This document shows, piece by piece, positions 1,149 to 9,581 of a DNA stretch of 64,000 bases (positions within the stretch are counted from its first letter, which is position 1; each line of letters begins with the position of its first letter). The position numbers and the translations under genes were made by a program. Below the pieces are notes generated by a model. That model made no database searches, had not been told where the DNA came from, and was given only the letters and a program-made list of their open reading frames with translations. The DNA comes from Candidatus Omnitrophota bacterium (lineage in GTDB: Bacteria; Omnitrophota; Gorgyraeia; Zapsychrales; Fredricksoniimonadaceae): assembly GCA_963828495.1 (NCBI GenBank), contig CAWHFJ010000011.1, positions 32,623 through 96,622 on the forward strand, in the 5' to 3' direction.

Positions 1149-2777
1149 TTATTCATCCTGGGTCATTTGATACACTTCTTCTTTGGTCGTAAGTCCCTGG
1201 GTAACTTTTTCCATACCATTATCCCGCAGGCTTTTCATGCCGGCCGCTAAAGCCGTGTGATGAATTTCTTCACTGGAAGCTTTCTTGAGAATCAAGGAAC
1301 GGATTTTCTCATCAAACTCAAGCAACTCACAAATACTGGTACGCCCTTTATAGCCGGTCATCAAACAAGCCGTACAGCCGCCACCGCCACACTCCTTACA
1401 TTTTAAACGGACCAATCGCTGGGCCAGGACACCGATAATCGAAGATGCCAGTAAAAAAGGTTCAACCCCTATATCCAAAAGACGGGTCACGGCCCCGGCC
1501 GCATTATTCGTGTGTAAAGTCGCCAACACCAGATGACCGGTTAAAGCCGCCTGTATCGCAATTTGAGAGGTCTCTGCGTCGCGGATCTCTCCGATCATAA
1601 TGACATCAGGGTCCTGTCTTAATATGGCACGCAAACCATTGGCGAATGTTAAATCCACCTTAGGGTTGACCTGCGTCTGGCGAATACCCGGCAGACGGTA
1701 TTCCACAGGGTCTTCAATCGTCACAATCGAAAGCTGCGGGTCATTGATCGTGCTGATAGCCGAATACAACGTCGTCGTCTTACCGCTTCCGGTCGGTCCT
1801 GTGACTAAAATAATCCCGTTAGGCCTCTCTAACAGACCGCGGAATTTAGTTAACATCGGCTCCTGAAAACCAATCTGCTCAAGGCCTAACCGTATATTGC
1901 CGGTATCCAAAAGCCGCAGGACAATATTTTCTCCATAAACTGTCGGCATAGATGAAACGCGGATATCGATACGTTTGTTTTCTACCCTCATTTGAATACG
2001 TCCATCCTGGGGCTTGCGCAGCTCCGAGATGTCTAACTTTGATATAATTTTGATGCGCGAGATAATCGCCGCTTGATATTGTTTCGGCGGAGAGGTCTGC
2101 AGATGCAGGACCCCATCAATTCTAAACCGGATAGCCAATGAATTTTCTTCCGGCTCCACATGAATGTCGGAAGCATCTTCACTGACGGCCTTGGTAATCA
2201 TGGAATTGACAAAAGCCACTACCGGGGCCCCTTCGATAAGATCATTGGAACGCGAAATATTAATTTCTTCCGCCTCTAGCGCCGCTTTCTGTGGAGAAAT
2301 TTCAGCATTCTTTAAAATCCCCTCCATCTCCCCTTTAGGCGCATAAAATTGATCGATCGCCTTCTTTATTTCATCCTCGGTCGCAATAGCCGGATCAATC
2401 GTCAAGCCTGTTCTTGAGGCCAGATCATCCTGTACATAAATATTAAAAACATCGACCATGGCACAGGTCAAGCTATTGCCTATTTTTAATACCGGCATGA
2501 CCAAATGTTTACGCGCCAGTTCTTCGGGGACAAGCTTGACCACCTGGGGATCAATCAGTAAATATTCCAACTCGATACGCGGGACATCCGTATGGCCGGT
2601 AATAAATGCCACCATCTTATCCTGCGGTATAAACCCGAGTCTGGGTAAAACTTTAAAAATAGAATCGCCTGTTTTTTGCTGCTCAATCTTGGCCGCTGCC
2701 AATTGAGACTGGGAAATAATCCCTTTCTCCAGCAAAAGCTCATCCATCGATTTTTTACCGTATGTATTCATGAACAA
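1149..2777 (-). CDS. GspE/PilB-family secretion ATPase (type II secretion / type IV pilus assembly)
   Basis: 542-aa ORF. It has an N-terminal T2SSE_N-like segment (LLLEKGIISQSQLAAAKIEQ), Walker A GPTGSGKTTT, an Asp box (IMIGEIRD), a His box (LVLATLHTN) and a Cys cluster (CKECGGGGCTAC). Confidence 0.9.
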   Translation of the reverse strand: MFMNTYGKKSMDELLLEKGIISQSQLAAAKIEQQKTGDSIFKVLPRLGFIPQDKMVAFITGHTDVPRIELEYLLIDPQVVKLVPEELARKHLVMPVLKIGNSLTCAMVDVFNIYVQDDLASRTGLTIDPAIATEDEIKKAIDQFYAPKGEMEGILKNAEISPQKAALEAEEINISRSNDLIEGAPVVAFVNSMITKAVSEDASDIHVEPEENSLAIRFRIDGVLHLQTSPPKQYQAAIISRIKIISKLDISELRKPQDGRIQMRVENKRIDIRVSSMPTVYGENIVLRLLDTGNIRLGLEQIGFQEPMLTKFRGLLERPNGIILVTGPTGSGKTTTLYSAISTINDPQLSIVTIEDPVEYRLPGIRQTQVNPKVDLTFANGLRAILRQDPDVIMIGEIRDAETSQIAIQAALTGHLVLATLHTNNAAGAVTRLLDIGVEPFLLASSIIGVLAQRLVRLKCKECGGGGCTACLMTGYKGRTSICELLEFDEKIRSLILKKASSEEIHHTALAAGMKSLRDNGMEKVTQGLTTKEEVYQMTQDE

Positions 2778-2786
2778 CGCTCTCTA

Positions 2787-3173
2787 TTAAACCTTAAGCA
2801 ATTCGCGGACCTTCTGGGTAAAAACCGAGACATTCAGAGGTTTGTTACAAAACGCATTGGCCCCCACCTGTTCAGCACTCTTTTTGACGGATTCCTCGGC
2901 GGAAGCGGTGAAAATAATGACAGGGATATGGCGATAACGCTTATCGGCCTTGATCAAAGCACAAGCTTTCATGCCATCCATTTTAGGCATCATCTGGTCT
3001 AAGATGATCAAATCGACCGAACTTTGCTTGATTGTAGCTAAAGCTTCCTGACCATCCCCGGCTTTAAGGACTTGAAGATCCATACCCTCAAGGACCTTCG
3101 ACATCAAAAGTACTTCCTTGATATCATCATCCACGACGAGCACCTTTTTCTTTGCCGTTTCGTTGGGTATCAT
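2787..3173 (-). CDS. Stand-alone response regulator receiver domain (CheY/PilH-like)
   Basis: ORF 2787..3215 trimmed to the ATG at 3173 (MIPNETAKKKVLVVDDD), which avoids overlap with the secretin stop at 3175. Receiver motifs are VVDDD, the acceptor Asp in LIILDQMMPKMDG, IIFTA and NKP. There is no output domain. Confidence 0.85.
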   Translation of the reverse strand: MIPNETAKKKVLVVDDDIKEVLLMSKVLEGMDLQVLKAGDGQEALATIKQSSVDLIILDQMMPKMDGMKACALIKADKRYRHIPVIIFTASAEESVKKSAEQVGANAFCNKPLNVSVFTQKVRELLKV

Positions 3174-3174
3174 A

Positions 3175-5004
3175 TTATTTCTTCCCCCCTCTGTCATCCA
3201 AAGGCACACACTCATTAACCATACTTTCGGCCTCTTTCATATACGGACTTCTGGGGACATCCTCTTCCATCTTGATGAGGGTTTTGTCCCCCGCCGCACA
3301 ATCCCCAAATTCTTTTACATAAATATAAACTATTCTGTACCAACAAAATCCGGCTTCACTCGATTGGGGGAATTCCTCTAAGATCATCCTGTAAGTTTTG
3401 ATCTGCTCCTCGCTGATGTTAAGGTTTTGGGCGGAATCTTTAGATTTATCCTCATCCAATCCTTTGGCATAATCCAGAAGCCCTTTAATCAGATTGCTGT
3501 CCTGGCCTCTTTTATTGTTATCCGACAACACAACGGGCGGCGCCATCGAGACGATATGGGGAGTGATCAACACCGTCAAGGTCCCATCGTTGACCAATGA
3601 AGAATCATGATGGAAAAACCAGCCTATAATAGGGATCGACATAATCCATGGCGTGCCGTTTTTCGTCAGGTTGGTATTCCTGCTATCCAGCCCTCCGATC
3701 ACTATCGTTTCGTTGTTTCTGACCCTGACCTCCGTCGAAGCCGAGGTCGTGGCAATATCCGGATTGCCATTGACAAGACCGATGAGCGAAGACACTTCCG
3801 GCTCGACTTTTAAAGTGATCCACCCGTCAGGAGAGACAAACGGCGTAACCTTGAGCTTGGTGCCGATATCAATATATTGCGTCTGGGTCTGGTTAACCAC
3901 ACTGCCGCCGGTCCCCCCCGCCGTAGACGTCGAGGACACATACGGATAGTGGTCTCCGATCAAAATGCTCGCTTCATGGCCATTCAAGGTGGCAATGGAC
4001 GGAGACGCTATCACGCGCGCCTTATTCTCGGTCACCAAAGCATTGATGGCCAGAACCGGAGAAAAATGTTTCCAGTTACCTAACAAACTGGATACACTCC
4101 CGTCGGAGGTGTTGCCTGTAACTTGTGTCGTGGTACCTGTACCGGAAGCCACCGTACCCGTAGAAGTACTCGTACCTGTAGTACCGGAAGAATTAGACGT
4201 ATTAAGAGCGTTTGTATTAGTCGTATTAAGGGTATTCTCAATAGTCCGGGTTGCTCCCGAGAGCAAACTCACACCCATCCCGGTAGAAGGGCTATACGTG
4301 AAATTCATGGTGGCACCGATGTCCTTAGAGTATTGTTTCGAAATATTCACGATCTTGGCATCGATCATAACCTGTAAGGGCGGCACGTCAATGCCCTTGA
4401 GATAGGACTTGATTAACTGCATATCCACAGGATTAGCGGTGACGACCAGGGCATTAGTGTCCTCATTTTCCTGAATAGTCCCCTTAAATTTGGTCTTGGC
4501 TGTGCTTAATAAAGTTTTGGCTTCTTTAATGGTCAAAAAACTTAACGGCAATGTTTCAGTCGCCTGATCAAGCTCCTCCTGGGGACAGACATAAACAATA
4601 CCCCCCTTGCGCATAAACCCGTAATTATGCACACTCAAAATCGCATTTAAAGCATCATCCAGAGAAAAATCCTTCAATTTCGCGGAAATCTTGCCTTCTA
4701 AATTTTTGGTTATAATAATATTGATGTTATAAGAATAGGCTATCGCTTTAAGAACGTCCGTCAGGTCCGCATTGATGTAATCTAAAGAAATCAATTTTGG
4801 GCCCGATACAGTGACCTTCTGGTCGGATTGTTGCGATTGCACGGAGTCCGGAGAAATAATCTCTAAAGACGACGAGCCCCCATTGGGCACAACAGGCTCA
4901 TCGGCAAATAAAGTCAACGGCCCTAAAAATAACATTAGAACCAGACTTATAATAAAATAATATCTTAATGTCCGGCGCAGAGACATCCTCCGAATAAAAG
5001 GCAT
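3175..5004 (-). CDS. Secretin (GspD/PilQ family) with a low-complexity insertion and a C-terminal extension
   Basis: ORF 3175..5049, with the start placed at ATG 5004 (MPFIRRMSLRRTLRYYFIISLV, signal-like). The N-domain shows LISLDYINADLTDVLKAIA. The secretin core shows VIASPSIATLNGHEASILIG, TKLKVTPFVSPDGWITLKVEPEVSS, IVIGGL, PIIGWFF and LTVLITPHIV. Confidence 0.85.
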   Translation of the reverse strand: MPFIRRMSLRRTLRYYFIISLVLMLFLGPLTLFADEPVVPNGGSSSLEIISPDSVQSQQSDQKVTVSGPKLISLDYINADLTDVLKAIAYSYNINIIITKNLEGKISAKLKDFSLDDALNAILSVHNYGFMRKGGIVYVCPQEELDQATETLPLSFLTIKEAKTLLSTAKTKFKGTIQENEDTNALVVTANPVDMQLIKSYLKGIDVPPLQVMIDAKIVNISKQYSKDIGATMNFTYSPSTGMGVSLLSGATRTIENTLNTTNTNALNTSNSSGTTGTSTSTGTVASGTGTTTQVTGNTSDGSVSSLLGNWKHFSPVLAINALVTENKARVIASPSIATLNGHEASILIGDHYPYVSSTSTAGGTGGSVVNQTQTQYIDIGTKLKVTPFVSPDGWITLKVEPEVSSLIGLVNGNPDIATTSASTEVRVRNNETIVIGGLDSRNTNLTKNGTPWIMSIPIIGWFFHHDSSLVNDGTLTVLITPHIVSMAPPVVLSDNNKRGQDSNLIKGLLDYAKGLDEDKSKDSAQNLNISEEQIKTYRMILEEFPQSSEAGFCWYRIVYIYVKEFGDCAAGDKTLIKMEEDVPRSPYMKEAESMVNECVPLDDRGGKK

Positions 5005-5097
5005 ATTTTTACGTATTATTATTCTATGGATATATTGATTTATAAACAAGAATAAACTGGAATATTTTAGGATAGGAATTAGGCTCGGCAGGGGAAA

Positions 5098-5595
5098 CTA
5101 TATCTCTTGCCTGGTGCCATAGACCAGGGACAGCCCAATGGCGCCGTTTAGTTGAGTCACCTCTTCTTGAACGGTCCGGATCAGGCCATTATAAGCACTG
5201 GATGATGTGATTTGAATTTTATTACCTGCGGTCACAACCCATATCGTATAACTTGAAAATCCTCCATCCAGCGATTCCTGACAGGGCAAAGTTGGAGTCA
5301 GCGTACACGAGGCAGGCAAAGTCCCTGCCGGCGCATAATTCCCGGCCGAAGCAGGATAAGGCGTTGTGCGCCAGGAGGCATTCGTTGTCCCATCAGGAGC
5401 TGTATTTCTTAAATAATACACCGCTTTGTTCGCCCCCGCTTCCGCAAGATATAACGCCTGGGTGCTACTAACCAGGGCACTGGCATTAGTGCTGTTGACC
5501 ATGACCATATTAATAAACAGCGAGGACAAAATCGTCAGGCAAATCATAAACATCAAGGTCATCAACAAAACACTGCCCCTGGATTTGTCAGGCAT
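5098..5595 (-). CDS. Minor pseudopilin-like protein (GspK/PilX-type, no Glu5)
   Basis: 165 aa. It has a short basic N-terminus followed by a hydrophobic helix (RGSVLLMTLMFMICLTILSSLF) and lacks the Glu5 of canonical pilins. It is the last gene of the pseudopilin run. Confidence 0.5.
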   Translation of the reverse strand: MPDKSRGSVLLMTLMFMICLTILSSLFINMVMVNSTNASALVSSTQALYLAEAGANKAVYYLRNTAPDGTTNASWRTTPYPASAGNYAPAGTLPASCTLTPTLPCQESLDGGFSSYTIWVVTAGNKIQITSSSAYNGLIRTVQEEVTQLNGAIGLSLVYGTRQEI

Positions 5596-5599
5596 ATGG

Positions 5600-6721
5600 C
5601 TAATTCCCTATCCCCGCATTATAAAGTTGGGACACTTCACTGGCGGACAAAACCCGGTTATAAATACGGACGTCGTCTATGGAACCGTTAAAAGGAATGG
5701 CGGTCCCGCTATTGGACATCCCTATAGTTAAGGCATGAGCGCTTATCGTAGTAATTAACGCCGCCGTAGCCGTTGCGACAGAAACCCCGTTAACATAAAA
5801 AGTCACCGCCCCCCCGGAGCCCAACGTCACGACAACATGGGTCCAGACATTATTGGGAATACTTAAAGCGCTCGATGTCACCGATTGACTGGTATTATAA
5901 CTAAATGTTAATGCAGGTCCCGCAGGGGCCAACTCTAAACCATATTCCCTGTCTGTCCCCCAGTTACCATATTCTACGATCGCCTGATTACTAGCCGCAT
6001 TGCTCGGGTTTATCCAGGCTGACAATGTTATTGTACCTGTCACTTGCAGGGAAGAGCTGCCGGAAACACTCACATACTGACTATCGGCACTATTAAAACT
6101 CATCGCCCCGTTAATGGGGTCTGAGGCGATGGCTCCTGTTGTCCACGTCGGAGAATTAAAACACATCCCTATGTTATTATTACCGCTGGACTCTGTAAGC
6201 ACCACACCCAAACACGTCCCTGATGTTGCTTCATCAAATTGCCACCAGCCCGCCAGTCCAATGGGCATATTTCTGGGCATAATATTATTTTGCAGGCGGA
6301 CACTTGTCCCGTTTTGCACAGCGGTCATATCAATGGTCACCAGACCATTGCTGCAGGTAAAAATATTAACTACACTCGCGCCCGGGGTCTGTATGCCTGT
6401 GGCCCTGGTCACTCCCCCATCGGTCACTAAATTCGAACCGCTTAACGCAAAGGTATAGGACGCCAGTCCGCTGCCTAAATTAGCGGTAAATGTTAAAGAA
6501 GTCGAGGAACATGACGTAATACTTTGGGCGTTAGACAATTCTCTGGCCATCAGGTCCATCGCCTGGGAAAGTTTGGTCCTTATAGTAATGCGATCCTGGC
6601 CGGAATCAAAAGCGCGAAAGCATGTCAGGTAGGCGAACATGATGCCGACAACCAAGAGCCCCACCAGGACCATGGCCATGAGCATTTCAAGAATGGTAAA
6701 ACCTCTTTGGGGCGTCATCAT
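5600..6721 (-). CDS. Pseudopilin with a C-terminal LamG (concanavalin-A-like lectin) domain
   Basis: 373 aa. Prepilin signal QRG|FTILEMLMAMVLVGLLVV with Glu5. The C-terminal part shows the LamG_3 pattern NVWTHVVVT...VTFYVNGV...FNGSIDDVRIYNRVLSASEV. Confidence 0.8.
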   Translation of the reverse strand: MMTPQRGFTILEMLMAMVLVGLLVVGIMFAYLTCFRAFDSGQDRITIRTKLSQAMDLMARELSNAQSITSCSSTSLTFTANLGSGLASYTFALSGSNLVTDGGVTRATGIQTPGASVVNIFTCSNGLVTIDMTAVQNGTSVRLQNNIMPRNMPIGLAGWWQFDEATSGTCLGVVLTESSGNNNIGMCFNSPTWTTGAIASDPINGAMSFNSADSQYVSVSGSSSLQVTGTITLSAWINPSNAASNQAIVEYGNWGTDREYGLELAPAGPALTFSYNTSQSVTSSALSIPNNVWTHVVVTLGSGGAVTFYVNGVSVATATAALITTISAHALTIGMSNSGTAIPFNGSIDDVRIYNRVLSASEVSQLYNAGIGN

Positions 6722-6722
6722 T

Positions 6723-7127
6723 TTAAGACGGTTGCGCCAATAACGTCGTTAAAGAAACTGAACTTTGCATCAAACCCAGCTGCCAGGAAACATACACTGT
6801 GACTTGTGTGGTCGGATTGCTATTAGTACCGCTTGCGGAAGGCAAAAAAGTCACCTGCCTGGAATAGTTCGCAAAACTTCCCGTCAGCGGGTTGAGCCCT
6901 GTAGGAAAATTTGTCGTGTTAATATTCGCATACGGAGTATTTTTAATGGTCTCCATCTCTTCCTGGGCCAAATTCAAAGCGATGGCTTGTCCCTCTATGG
7001 AACTGTCGGTATATACGCCGGCGGCCATAGCACTGACAACAGCCACCACCCCGAAAACAATCAGGACTGTGGCGAGCAAAACTTCGAGGAGAGTAAAACC
7101 TTTCTTATCCGGGGGAAAATACTTCAT
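6723..7127 (-). CDS. Minor pseudopilin (GspI/PilV-size) with a prepilin N-terminal methylation motif
   Basis: 134 aa. KKG|FTLLEVLLATVLIVFGVV with Glu5. Confidence 0.75.
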   Translation of the reverse strand: MKYFPPDKKGFTLLEVLLATVLIVFGVVAVVSAMAAGVYTDSSIEGQAIALNLAQEEMETIKNTPYANINTTNFPTGLNPLTGSFANYSRQVTFLPSASGTNSNPTTQVTVYVSWQLGLMQSSVSLTTLLAQPS

Positions 7128-7172: not shown

Positions 7173-9581
7173 TTATGAGCAGAAAACTATCGCATGCGTT
7201 GAACCAGAGGCGCTGGATGCCGGCCCTGTTCCGGCAGCATTCGTGGCTGTTACTGTAAATGTATAAGACGCCCCATAGGTCAATCCCATCACAGTCAACG
7301 GACTCCCTGTTCCTGTCCCTGTCAAAGAACCGGGATTAGATGTGGCTGTGTAGGACGTGATCGCGCTGCCACCATTTGATGCCGGCGGTGTGAAGGTAAC
7401 GGTCGCTTCTGCGGCGTCCGCGGGGCCCCCATCTATATAATATCCACACTGACTGGCGGCAACACCGGTTGGCGCTCCAGGCACGGTGTAGGGTGTGACT
7501 GAATTAGACGCGCTTGATGCTGCCGAAGTCCCTACGGAGTTTGTTGCCGTGACTGTAAATGTATACGACGTGCCATTGGTCAAGCCTGTGACAGTCCCCG
7601 GACTGCTTGTGCAAGGCTGTATTTGACCGAAACTTGACATTACCGTATAGGACGTTATCGCGCATCCGCCATCTAAGGTCGGTGGCGTAAACGTCACTGT
7701 GGCCTGTGCATTGCCTGCAGTCGCGCTACCTATGACTGGAGGCGCAGGGACACTACAGCTAGACGAACAAGTATTCTTAACAGCCACATTATGTACTAAG
7801 AAACTATCCGCATAATAGTCATGACCTCCGTCTAATTTGGGGTTATAAACAACGGAATCTTTAGCTGTTTTAAATTCAATCTTGTTAATACGCACCTTGC
7901 CGCTAAGAGTAACAAGCTCGTCGCCTATTTTAAGTTGTCCTATTTTAAGCTTAGGGTTTTCCTTCCTGGCTATTTGAGGATTAAGCGCCTTCCATCCATC
8001 GGTGGTCATAAAACTATGGCTGTCCGTCACAAAATACCGCCCGCCGTTAAAGGCGTAAACCTTCCAGTCTTGCCTGCGCCTGATCATAAGCTCAAGTAGC
8101 TTGTTATGCCCGCCTTGAGCACCTTGAAGAATATCCCCACCTTTAAGATCTTGAATTTCTACGATCCTGCCGTTGGCTAGTAAGATCTTAGTTCCTGAGA
8201 CAAAACATCCCAAATAATGGCAAATGCTGCTGCAACATTGTGAATCACTAGAACAGCCCAAGCCATTATTTACACAGGGTGTCACCGCATTAGATGCGCT
8301 TGATGCAGGGCCTGTGCCAACAGCATTTGTCGCTGTAACTGTAAATGTATATGATGTGCCATTGGTCAAGCCCGTGACCGTCTGGCTGGTGCTTAATCCC
8401 GACGATGTCAATCCGCCAGGACTGGACGTGACCGTGTAGGATGTGATCGGGCTGCCGCCATTGGATGCAGGGGCGCTGAAAGTAACGGTCGCTGACGCAT
8501 TACCTGCCGTCGCGCTCACACCGGTTGGAGCGCCCGGAACAGTATACGCAACCGGTGTGACCGCATTAGATGCGCTTGATGCAGGGCCTGTGCCTACGAC
8601 ATTCGTTGCCGTTACTGTACATGAATAAGAATCACCATTGATAAGACCGGTCACCGTCTGTGAAGTGCTTAATCCTGATGATGAGCCTACAACGTCTACC
8701 ATTAGACTCTGACATACTACAGTATAAGATGTGATCGGGCTGCCGCCATTGGATGCAGGGGCGCTGAAAGTAACGGTCGCTGACGCATTACCTGCCGTCG
8801 CGCTCACACCGGTCGGAGCGCCCGGAACAGTATAGCATACACCGCTGATACAGCTGCCTGCACATACACTGCCGCAGCTGCCGCAATTACTCGCATCTGA
8901 ACTCAACGTGCTGCAAGTGCCATTGCAACCGGTCTGCCCGCCGGCACAGCAAGTCCCATTAGTGCAAATCTGACCGGCACTACATACGGTTAAGCTCGTC
9001 CCGCAATAGCCGGTATTCGAACTGACATCCACACAAGTGCCATTGTAACAACGCTTACCGCCGGTACAGCCGCCGCAGCTGTCTGTGGCTGCGCCTGCCC
9101 CTGCCGTGTTGGCCGCACCAACATTACAGCCGCTGCCGTTGGTGACACACACAGCATTGTTGCTAATTGCAACTGAACCATTAGGGCCTATGCTCACCGA
9201 ACCATTGCCTGTCGGGCCTTTAGAATAAAGCACATAATATTTCCCGTTGGCAGAGACCTGATAACCATATTCCGTGCTATTGCCAGCGATGAAAGGATCG
9301 TACAAAACACTCCTAATAACCTTAGGGGACGCTTCGGTTAAAGTAGAAGCCCCCAGAGAAGTGCTTGAATTAGGATAGGTATTGTTGTTATTTAAATAGT
9401 AGGCTGTGACCGCCGCCTGCATGGTCTTAAGTTCAGCCTGGGCCTGGGAGAGTTTCCCCGAGTTCTGCATACCTTTATACATCGGCAGCCCGACGCTGAT
9501 CAAAATAGCCGCAACGGCAAAAATAACAAACAACTCTAATATGGTCTGGGATTTCTTATTAAGGAAGGCGGAAAAATTCAT
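7173..9581 (-). CDS. Giant pseudopilin fusion: GspG-like domain + Cys-rich region + 2 FN3 + Cys knot + Hint (BIL) domain + 2 FN3
   Basis: Single 802-aa ORF.
- aa 1-144 form a GspG-like pseudopilin: KKS|QTILELFVIFAVAAILISVGLP with Glu5, AELKTMQAAVTAYYLNNNNTYP, and LYDPF...YGYQV...YYVLYSKGPTGNG.
- aa 145-250 carry about 24 Cys.
- FN3 units begin PGAPTGVSATAGNASATVTFSAPASNGGSPITSYTV and end SYTFTVTATNAVGTGPASSASN.
- The Hint domain is aa 459-598. Confidence 0.85.
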   Translation of the reverse strand: MNFSAFLNKKSQTILELFVIFAVAAILISVGLPMYKGMQNSGKLSQAQAELKTMQAAVTAYYLNNNNTYPNSSTSLGASTLTEASPKVIRSVLYDPFIAGNSTEYGYQVSANGKYYVLYSKGPTGNGSVSIGPNGSVAISNNAVCVTNGSGCNVGAANTAGAGAATDSCGGCTGGKRCYNGTCVDVSSNTGYCGTSLTVCSAGQICTNGTCCAGGQTGCNGTCSTLSSDASNCGSCGSVCAGSCISGVCYTVPGAPTGVSATAGNASATVTFSAPASNGGSPITSYTVVCQSLMVDVVGSSSGLSTSQTVTGLINGDSYSCTVTATNVVGTGPASSASNAVTPVAYTVPGAPTGVSATAGNASATVTFSAPASNGGSPITSYTVTSSPGGLTSSGLSTSQTVTGLTNGTSYTFTVTATNAVGTGPASSASNAVTPCVNNGLGCSSDSQCCSSICHYLGCFVSGTKILLANGRIVEIQDLKGGDILQGAQGGHNKLLELMIRRRQDWKVYAFNGGRYFVTDSHSFMTTDGWKALNPQIARKENPKLKIGQLKIGDELVTLSGKVRINKIEFKTAKDSVVYNPKLDGGHDYYADSFLVHNVAVKNTCSSSCSVPAPPVIGSATAGNAQATVTFTPPTLDGGCAITSYTVMSSFGQIQPCTSSPGTVTGLTNGTSYTFTVTATNSVGTSAASSASNSVTPYTVPGAPTGVAASQCGYYIDGGPADAAEATVTFTPPASNGGSAITSYTATSNPGSLTGTGTGSPLTVMGLTYGASYTFTVTATNAAGTGPASSASGSTHAIVFCS
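7788..8207 (-). other. Hint / bacterial intein-like (BIL) domain, 140 aa, no endonuclease
   Basis: aa 459-598: CFVSGTKILLANGRIVEIQDL (intein block A with Cys1), VTDSHSF (TxxH block B), and VVYNPKLDGGHDYYADSFLVHN (blocks F/G ending His-Asn). The residue after Asn is Val (HN|VAVKNTC). Hand counts give ~38% GC on the lines at 7801 and 7861, against 60% on the flanking FN3 line at 8461. Confidence 0.85.
8441..8834 (-). repeat. Intragenic tandem FN3-unit repeat with near-identical DNA
   Basis: 8441..8546 and 8729..8834 are 105/106 identical; the only difference is ccggtTggag versus ccggtCggag. The offset is 288 nt, or 96 codons. A second pair, 8281..8318 and 8557..8594, has 1 mismatch at an offset of 276 nt. 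Confidence 0.9.
8832..9149 (-). other. Cysteine-rich region (aa 145-250) of the 802-aa protein
   Basis: CVTNGSGCNVG...DSCGGCTGGKRCYNGTCVDVSSNTGYCGTSLTVCSAGQICTNGTCCAGGQTGCNGTCSTLSSDASNCGSCGSVCAGSCISGVC. These are repeated short C-x-G-x-C spacings. No family name can be assigned by eye. Confidence 0.6.
9150..9581 (-). other. GspG-like pseudopilin module of the 802-aa protein (aa 1-144)
   Basis: See the motifs listed for the parent CDS. The class III signal is unusual because Ser, not Gly, sits at position -1 and Gln at +1 (NKKS|QTILE). Confidence 0.7.

Follow-up and report, generated by a model that had tools for sequence, protein, structure and literature searches.

A type-A-like bacterial intein-like domain in a type IV pilin-like protein of an Omnitrophota bacterium, and its relatives in other pilus subunits

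Type A bacterial intein-like (BIL) domains possess an N-terminal cysteine (Cys1), a block B and a C-terminal His-Asn pair, and have no nucleophile at the +1 position, the first residue after the domain; they splice poorly and predominantly cleave, and type B domains do not carry the His-Asn end (PMC4031507, PMC7765530, PMC7664689). Autoprocessing is the expected activity of BIL domains, and those of type A form a thioester, cleave through cyclisation of their terminal Asn and are able to ligate their flanks via the freed amine, with cleavage products dominating (PMC4031507, PMC7664689). The BIL2 domain of the Tetrahymena protein BUBL1 ligates via the epsilon-amine of a Lys to give an isopeptide bond, and can also transfer its N-terminal flank (N-extein) to other proteins (PMC8616854). 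Here we analyse a Hint domain encoded in a 64,000-nucleotide stretch of DNA, hereafter the window, of a Candidatus Omnitrophota bacterium (GenBank assembly GCA_963828495.1, contig CAWHFJ010000011.1, positions 32,623 to 96,622). The domain lies inside a type IV pilin-like protein of 802 amino acids (aa), between two pairs of FN3 domains. By its motifs, this segment (aa 459-598) is a type-A-like BIL mini-Hint that ends in His-Asn and has all the type A sequence features. We give a probability of about one half to the reading that it removes itself from the subunit while the C-terminal part, with two FN3 domains, is kept on the pilin-anchored part, the steps being those suggested by analogy with its family.

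The domain occupies positions 7788..8207 of the reverse strand (-), exactly aa 459-598 of the 802-aa open reading frame (ORF) at 7173..9581 (-). Its block A stretch, CFVSGTKILLANG, covers aa 459-471 and begins with Cys459, the motif VTDSHSF (aa 518-524) contains Thr519 and His522, and DSFLVHN (aa 592-598) forms the end. At 140 aa it has no endonuclease insert; no second ORF of at least 80 aa in the window ORF list overlaps the segment, and a six-frame translation of the whole window yielded neither a second Hint nor Hint remnants. The codon at +1 is GTG for Val599 (cat aat gtg gct gtt aag), after which the protein continues A-V-K-N-T-C. A previous sequence-only reading had placed the domain and its motifs at these same positions, and had pointed out the Val after His-Asn and the lack of a homing endonuclease in a domain of 140 aa; translation confirms each of these claims. 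Since the same Val is found both in a 98%-identical strain variant of the protein and in a homolog, P0156, the first Hint of which is 92% identical to the window Hint, Val599 is not a sequencing slip. Within the family, the His-Asn end is retained in 213 of 218 full-length Hint copies taken from the 150 best proteins, and in alignment A3 the block B His is invariant and the Thr nearly so. The window protein and its strain variant differ by 17 substitutions, none of which falls within aa 443-612 (p ~0.02 by our own estimate, if substitutions were spread evenly along the protein). Together, the domain and its relatives point clearly to an intact HINT catalytic set under purifying selection.

The classification as a BIL is consistent at the levels of sequence and fold. 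The first relatives recovered were seven proteins with 59-71% identity, the profile of which matched 7,807 cluster representatives at E <= 1e-3 and 375 at E <= 1e-30; the window Hint itself scores 256 bits (E 3e-78) against the profile of its relatives. When the family profile was compared with PDB sequences, BUBL1 BIL2 (6tmm/6y75) came first (E 3e-10) and the Clostridium thermocellum BIL (2lwy) second (E 1.5e-6), both over the full length, and the best chains named as inteins were 8w20_A (1.9e-4), deposited as 'Intein C-terminal splicing domain-containing protein', and the gp41-1 intein (2.1e-4). Judged on the sequences of solved structures, the window Hint is thus placed nearer to BILs than to inteins or to Hedgehog (Hog) domains. 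An AlphaFold2 model built from an 80-sequence alignment gave block means of the predicted local distance difference test (pLDDT) of 91-98 across the Hint and of <60 in the linkers. In a Foldseek search of the PDB, this model again retrieved BIL2 first (E 1.4e-10, TM 0.78) and the C. thermocellum BIL second (E 2e-8), followed by mini-inteins and by Hedgehog 1at0 at 7.6e-6; the top matches are all HINT domains, BILs leading, and the modelled domain accordingly has a predicted HINT fold. Profile and fold searches therefore agree with the view, already taken in the sequence-only reading, of a BIL mini-Hint rather than an ordinary intein, and the choice between types that it had left to be made falls, by the His-Asn end, on a type-A-like domain. 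None of the curated Hint models scored (Pfam PF07591, PF13403, PF14623, PF05203 and PF01079; NCBIfam TIGR01445/TIGR01443) reached its cutoff on the window Hint: the scores were 24.7 bits for Hom_end_hint (cutoff 32.1), 23.5 for PT-HINT (27.7), 21.6 for Hint_2 (28.4), 20.5 for Vint (27) and 20.8 for intein_Nterm (24.5). No single curated model covers the clade as such, PT-HINT matching 35 of 80 relatives.

Some matches of the domain concern other folds or distant architectures. In single-sequence searches of the PDB the top matches were designed ankyrin repeat proteins (DARPins; E 1e-10), an identity that was dropped: one segment (KILLANG...GHNKLLELM) weakly matches the repeated ankyrin consensus many times over and the score adds these matches up, they vanish with the family profile, and the segment is modelled as beta-strands of the Hint fold. 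In 42 of 80 relatives the Pfam model AXH (the Ataxin-1/HBP1 module) cross-matches the Hint in its N-terminal part, with a best E of 1.5e-10 (alignment A3), and Ataxin-1 AXH structures occur among the weak PDB sequence matches. The same profile also found P0136, an 810-aa protein in which ubiquitin-like domains alternate with Hints (...LRLRGA/CF...HN/SMQIFVKT...); this is the BUBL architecture known from ciliates, and it forms the most distant branch of the tree.

The lack of a nucleophile at +1, which the sequence-only reading had taken as an anomaly, is ordinary once the clade is considered. Among the 218 full-length copies the +1 residue is Lys in 174 and Val in 6, and among 315 copies, obtained by adding a second search, Lys accounts for 73% and Ser, Thr or Cys for 11/315 (3.5%); both counts were taken over cluster representatives, so that the copies are not independent events, and the list of the 150 best proteins is skewed towards multi-copy proteins, whose scores add up. 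The absence of a nucleophile at +1 is the rule for BILs, and the Hint itself is a textbook-type BIL, less strange than had been supposed. Lys is at +1 in 73-80% of copies, several relatives stop exactly at ...VHNK, and Hint copies within pilin domains never have a +1 Lys. By analogy, the Lys of the clade may be related to the Lys-isopeptide chemistry reported for BUBL BIL2. Lys at +4 (Lys602 in the window) is common to the window protein, P0156 and P0019, and P0018 has Lys at +1. The idea that a Lys at +2 to +6 generally stands in for the +1 Lys was rejected, as Lys at +4 occurs in just 3 of the 67 copies without the +1 Lys, which amounts to no general rule.

Among the described systems, C. 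thermocellum BIL4 (2lwy), a type A BIL, has in common with the window Hint the HINT fold, a length of ~140 aa without endonuclease, Cys1, TxxH and His-Asn, and a non-nucleophilic +1 residue (phmmer E 1.3e-4 over residues 2-140). As in type A BILs generally, hosts are variable secreted or surface proteins and positions are not conserved, and thioester formation, Asn cyclisation and cleavage or amine ligation would be expected (PMC4031507). The window Hint departs from them in that its host is type IV pilin-like and the Hint is set in a Cys-rich linker between FN3 domains, and the clade adds two traits known here from it only, namely +1 Lys in about three quarters of copies and frequent tandem arrays. 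BUBL1 BIL2 (6tmm, 6y75) similarly has Cys1, a terminal His-Asn and no +1 nucleophile, but is eukaryotic and cytoplasmic, is flanked by ubiquitin-like domains, and has a reported Zn-dependent activation. With class 1 mini-inteins (gp41-1, Ssp/Npu DnaB, Npu DnaE) the domain has in common the fold (Foldseek E 4e-8 to 1e-4) and blocks A, B, F and G, and its F/G stretch, VVYNPKLDGGHDYYADSFLVHN, presumably resembles the intein consensus, with the Npu DnaE C-intein as the standard of comparison, a likeness that we use as a lead only. Unlike these inteins, it lacks Cys, Ser or Thr at +1, bears no sign of homing and does not sit at a conserved site of a housekeeping enzyme; its relatives occupy different positions in unrelated surface proteins. 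Hog domains are Hints placed C-terminally and followed by a sterol- or adduct-recognition region, and are not known to conserve a terminal His-Asn. They resemble the window Hint in fold (1at0, Foldseek E 7.6e-6) and, by prediction, in handing a thioester to a nucleophile, and many relatives have a Hog-like layout with a secreted N-terminal domain and a C-terminal Hint (for example in L001, with 427 aa, in L003 and in L004); the window Hint, in contrast, is internal, with 204 aa after it and no recognition region, and keeps its His-Asn. PT-HINT (PF07591) matches the C-terminal half of the domain at 23.5 bits, yet the window protein has no toxin or immunity module, and Hint_2 (PF13403), the model that corresponds to type B BILs, matches its N-terminal 45 residues at 21.6 bits. 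Type B domains lack the block G His-Asn (PMC4031507), which the window Hint has.

Of most interest is the distribution of the relatives: pilin-like proteins are recurrent hosts of this clade as judged from their sequences. The literature searched yielded no published account of type IV pilin-like proteins that contain a Hint or a BIL, so that in this literature the association is undocumented. Hosts comprise Cys-rich secreted proteins, pilins, giant proteins and FN3 linkers, and the position of the Hint varies among them. Many hosts are secreted, rich in Cys and closed by the Hint, after which only 0-12 residues follow, for example the 427-aa ORF in L001 and a protein of L003, from a Candidatus Omnitrophota metagenome-assembled genome (MAG). 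P0033 (L004:4228-6465), from a MAG labelled uncultured Planctomycetales, is a homolog (E 2e-28) of the 373-aa LamG minor pilin encoded in the window at 5600-6721 (-), extended by Cys-rich repeats and a terminal Hint; by comparison with the window protein, the pilin that bears the Hint in this type of operon is thus not the same one in every genome. A further pilin-like protein with a Hint near its C-terminus was found in L007, from a Bacteriovoracaceae MAG. In addition, ~20 sequence clusters consist of pilins of 289-327 aa with canonical prepilin signals, each having a Hint at one site in the globular domain, in the layout ...GPNGAWG / Hint / x...GDDICVTNGTGC-end, where +1 is occupied by V, A, P, R, I or S, but in no case by Lys. 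The pilin-like domain of the window protein is homologous to these ~300-aa pilins and is itself uninterrupted, the counterpart sequence being ...GPTGNGSVSIGPNGSVAISNNAVCVTNGSGC. On L008 (394-6892; ENA k141_405852), seven consecutive genes encode type IV pilins of ~294 aa, all split by a Hint at an identical position, and directly adjoin pilO and pilM, the paralogs differing at +1 (S, I, V, P, R, N, A), and L009:282-3013 carries three Hint-interrupted pilin genes in tandem. Hints that recur in this way in pilus subunits of uncultured bacteria suggest, on comparative grounds, subunit maturation by self-processing.

P0008, P0009, P0010, P0015, P0012, P0013 and others contain head-to-tail arrays of 2-7 Hints with spacers of only 1-5 residues (HN/K-G-G-S/CF), in some hosts of up to 4,119 aa. 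In several giant hosts the first Hint directly follows an Ala/Gly/Ile-rich hydrophobic stretch resembling a membrane segment.

The closest architectures are those of P0018, P0019 and P0156, in which an FN3 domain is followed by C-x6-C-x5-CC-x3-C-x3/4, the Hint, x4-6-C-x3-C (present after the window Hint as well) and an FN3 domain with a 'GGC' motif, the FN3 domains of the C-terminal flank (C-extein) being kept in frame in all three. P0019, a protein of 1,327 aa with the same N-terminus as the window protein, also contains, between two other FN3 domains, a copy of this linker that has no Hint, TPCLALASSCVSDGQCCANICTNAAVCAATCTAP. Its pattern, TPC-x6-C-x5-CC-x3-C-TNAAV-C-x3-C, corresponds to the N-flank plus the C-flank of the Hint-bearing linker, and this 'empty site' shows that both flanks form one continuous Cys-rich element in the absence of the Hint. 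The window protein has 25 Cys in its N-extein, one in the Hint and six in its C-extein; five of the 25 are in the N-side linker, an odd number that means that one of them must pair elsewhere, and the count would allow a partner in the C-side linker, a partner in Cys459 (a redox trap) or a free thiol. Cys parity was considered and set aside as proof of an obligatory disulfide between the exteins, since it holds for the local 5+3 module of P0018 and P0019 and is ambiguous for the window protein.

The reading that we favour follows the chemistry of the family. After export and folding, Cys459 would attack the Gly458 carbonyl in an N-S acyl shift, helped by Thr519 and His522, to form a thioester; Asn598, aided by His597, would cyclise and cut the Asn598-Val599 bond; and with both junctions cut the 140-aa Hint would be excised. 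Because Cys, Ser or Thr is lacking at +1, a branched ester intermediate is not possible, and the thioester would be resolved by an amine, either the alpha-amine freed on Val599, as in type A BILs, or the nearby epsilon-amine of Lys602, as in BUBL BIL2, or else by water. The two-FN3 part would stay on the pilin-anchored part via the new amide bond and/or disulfides of the split linker, and the action of the Hint would thereby mature the exposed part of the subunit. We expect the two-FN3 part to remain attached because the flanks are continuous in the Hint-less linker, because, in the copies that interrupt pilins, the pilin fold would otherwise be left without its end, and because the terminal Asn is conserved even where a single residue follows it. 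That the Hint is active at one or both junctions is very probable; given such activity, joining of the flanks by an amide comes close to an even chance, release of the C-terminal part seems doubtful, a protein that is cut and yet associated or tethered rather more so, and transfer to another molecule improbable.

Several observations weigh against self-removal with retention of the two-FN3 part. Type A BILs expressed in E. coli mostly cleave rather than ligate (PMC4031507, PMC7664689); the window copy lacks the +1 Lys kept in 73-80% of the clade, and a +4 Lys in only three copies is weak evidence for a substitute. We assume that the beta-branched Val599 would hinder an attack by its alpha-amine. 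The six Cys of the C-extein are an even number, so that the odd Cys of the N-side linker could pair with Cys459 or stay free, and the linkers, with pLDDT <60, give no disulfide map. Moreover, the free catalytic thiol would have to survive in an oxidising compartment.

A first alternative, which was the first inference of the sequence-only reading and which we regard as unlikely, is that the Hint merely cuts at one or both ends, and that the two-FN3 part and the Hint are shed from the pilin-anchored part. The dominance of cleavage products of type A BILs in vitro (PMC4031507, PMC7664689) would fit, as would the even Cys count of the window C-extein, which could be self-contained, and the 31 of 123 last copies that have a tail of 0-12 aa, where removal of the Hint is the sole visible outcome. 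Shedding agrees less well with the paralogous Hint-less linker, which is continuous and has the same Cys pattern, or with the pilin-interrupting relatives, where release would strip the last strand and the disulfide loop from the pilin fold; and a terminal Asn kept with nothing sizeable after it suggests a reaction at the C-junction beyond the shedding of a tail.

Alternatively, the amine of another molecule, such as a neighbouring subunit, an envelope component or a surface protein of a target cell, could attack the Gly458 thioester, leaving the filament-borne part covalently attached to it as BUBL BIL2 does with ubiquitin-like domains, a possibility to which we give little credence for the window protein. 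The sequence-only reading had raised the idea of a thioester passed to another nucleophile, and it has a real precedent: the closest solved relative, BIL2, does conjugate its N-extein to Lys of other proteins (PMC8616854) and is the best match by both sequence and fold. The +1 Lys is strongly conserved in the clade, including in one-residue tails (...HNK followed by a stop), and pilins are repeated hosts of the Hint, among them the candidate major pilins encoded in tandem beside pilM and pilO. On the other hand, +1 is Val in the window copy and is never Lys in those that interrupt pilins, any acceptor is hypothetical, BIL2 is only 23-24% identical to the window Hint in the Foldseek structural alignment, and no branch of the tree is more distant than that of the BUBL-like copies (P0136). 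A broader form of the idea, in which pilins of this lineage, the candidate major pilins of the tandem arrays included, carry BIL-type Hints whose thioesters are used on pilus subunits outside the cytoplasm and are resolved by the amine of another molecule, giving covalently cross-linked fibres or covalent attachment of the tip to a prey or host surface, is a long shot, though a slightly better one. If it were true, cross-linking of pili by Hints would be a sortase-independent and ATP-independent counterpart of the isopeptide chemistry of Gram-positive pili, mechanistically akin to the ubiquitin-like conjugation by BUBL BIL2.

It is also improbable that the Hint is an inert structural or adhesive insert that stays in the mature subunit between the FN3 domains and undergoes no processing. 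The N- and C-termini of the Hint fold are adjacent, as established for inteins, so that the domain fits into a loop without breaking its host, a placement that the AlphaFold2 model would allow; and in 4 of 19 pilin relatives the +1 residue is Pro, which is unfavourable beside an Asn that cleaves. As a rule, however, Hint relatives that are not catalytic have lost their catalytic residues, and here the catalytic positions are all kept (Cys1 in 218/218 copies, TxxH, and His-Asn in 213/218), with no substitution in the strain variant over aa 443-612. That the domain is an ordinary class 1 mini-intein, or a pretoxin-HINT releasing a C-terminal toxin, is scarcely credible, for despite similar blocks A, B, F and G (Foldseek matches to gp41-1 and DnaB inteins at E about 1e-8) and sub-threshold Pfam matches to Hom_end_hint and PT-HINT (17-23.5 bits against a cutoff of 27.7 for the latter), both already conflict with the residue at +1 (Val in this protein as in the closest relatives, with Ser, Thr or Cys in 3.5% of 315 copies) and with the C-terminal domain content, the host being a variable surface protein with the Hint in an inter-domain linker rather than at a conserved enzyme site, the C-extein consisting of two FN3 domains without a toxin domain, and the next same-strand gene encoding a minor pilin and not being a recognisable immunity gene.

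The base composition of the gene, which the sequence-only reading had taken as consistent with an acquired domain on the strength of about 38% G+C (GC) in the Hint against 60% in the flanking FN3 DNA, shows no more than a contrast. These figures stand as the extremes of 150-nt windows (0.387 and 0.607-0.62), and do not hold domain-wide, where the Hint has 42.6%, the FN3 domains 53-57% and the whole window 46.2%. GC at second codon positions (GC2) is 0.34 in the Hint against 0.66-0.74 in the FN3 and Cys-rich parts, and a GC2 of 0.66 is not attained by any 140-codon stretch in the window's other genes; the Hint lies at the 13th percentile for total GC and at the 29th for GC2. At third positions (GC3) the Hint has 0.42, equal to FN3-1, the FN3 domains have 0.42-0.55 and other genes 0.51 +/- 0.06, placing the Hint at the 6th percentile; its GC3 is thus mildly low at most, without a sharp break. 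The compositional outliers are the FN3 and Cys-rich flanks, owing to their high content of Gly, Ala, Ser, Thr and Pro, and not the Hint; the flanking DNA concerned (7176-7745 and 8280-9131 (-)) lies beyond the GC2 range of every other gene in the window. Composition was therefore dropped as a mark of foreign DNA, after the split by codon position and the comparison with all other window genes: the break is due to amino-acid composition. The Hint has also diverged in step with its host: compared with the homolog P0019, the pilin domain is 68% identical, the Cys-rich region 80%, the Hint 72% and FN3-3 65%, and in a neighbour-joining tree Hint copies group mostly by host context. The only direct repeats found in a search for insertion scars are those of the FN3 repeat families, with none at the Hint borders. 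A recent insertion of the Hint is not supported by these sequence comparisons; an old insertion, or a loss of the Hint, is indicated by the Hint-less paralogous linker in P0019.

The Hints thus occur in three pilin settings, namely FN3 linkers of pilin fusions, the ends of LamG minor pilins and one fixed site in ~300-aa pilins. If they are active, pilus subunits of Omnitrophota-like, probably host-dependent bacteria would undergo self-catalysed maturation or ligation, a step not known from pilus biology. The +1 Lys of the clade, together with the isopeptide precedent of BIL2, provides a concrete biochemical hypothesis, and the domains might also serve as compact tools for ligation without a nucleophilic side chain. 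The features of the host protein and the neighbouring pilus genes are listed in Table 1.

Table 1. Features of the 802-aa protein and of the genes next to it, with their coordinates in the window
Feature	Position	Strand	Evidence
802-aa ORF: pilin-like N-terminus, Cys-rich region, 2 FN3, Cys linker, Hint, Cys linker, 2 FN3	7173..9581 (incl. stop)	(-)	ORF list, Pfam, NCBIfam
Pilin-like domain, aa 1-150: hydrophobic helix and globular part to ...AVCVTNGSGC (aa 143-152)	9132..9581	(-)	GspG/T2SSG
Cys-rich region, aa 151-250, 17 Cys	8832..9131	(-)	NF041328, MXAN_6577-like Cys-rich match, E 2e-10
FN3-1 and FN3-2, aa 251-434	8280..8831	(-)	Pfam fn3; DNA repeat families D1-D4
N-side Cys linker, aa 436-458, C-x6-C-x5-CC-x3-C-HYLG, 5 Cys, Gly458 = -1	8208..8276	(-)	Same pattern in P0018, P0019
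HINT (type-A-like BIL) domain, aa 459-598	7788..8207	(-)	Profile, model and Foldseek evidence
Cys459, predicted N-terminal nucleophile (block A)	8205..8207	(-)	Invariant in 218/218 full-length copies
Block B, Thr519-x-x-His522	8016..8027	(-)	Thr and His invariant or nearly so in alignments A1-A3
His597-Asn598, end of block G, predicted succinimide-forming Asn	7788..7793	(-)	Codons cat aat
C-side linker, aa 599-612: Val599 (+1), Lys602 (+4), C-x3-C (Cys605, Cys609)	7746..7787	(-)	Sequence
FN3-3 and FN3-4, aa 613-802 (C-extein body)	7176..7745	(-)	Pfam fn3
134-aa pilin, canonical prepilin motif, no Pfam match	6723..7127	(-)	ORF, prepilin motif
373-aa LamG pilin, canonical prepilin motif	5600..6721	(-)	ORF, Pfam, prepilin motif
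PilX_N-like protein	5098..5595	(-)	ORF, Pfam
Secretin	3175..5049	(-)	ORF, Pfam
Response regulator	2787..3215	(-)	ORF, Pfam
GspE/PilB ATPase	1149..2777	(-)	ORF, Pfam

The exact 802-aa protein is present in a public collection, as is its 98%-identical variant. The four FN3 domains, two before and two after the Hint, are recognised by Pfam (fn3, E 1.2e-40), and Cys640 lies in a 'DGGC' motif specific to the FN3 domain after the linker. FN3-1 and FN3-2 have a stretch of 116 nt in common with 97% identity, which points to a recent internal duplication. The pilin-like part (aa 13-126) matches GspG (TIGR01710, E 2e-7) and T2SSG (E 1.3e-3), both under their cutoffs, and a homolog search with the pilin domain returned only two matches, one of them from a Candidatus Omnitrophica MAG; MAGs of Omnitrophota or Omnitrophica are the best named relatives. 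In its class III-like signal, KKS/QTILE (9540-9581 (-), aa 1-14), Glu+5 and the hydrophobic helix are present, but the residue before the predicted cleavage point is Ser and not Gly; the homolog P0019 likewise has Ser there (KKS/HSLLE). The same-strand genes downstream of the 802-aa ORF span 1149..7127 (-) and constitute a pilus or type II secretion system (T2SS) context, and the two pilin genes among them have the canonical signals KKGFTLLE and QRGFTILE.

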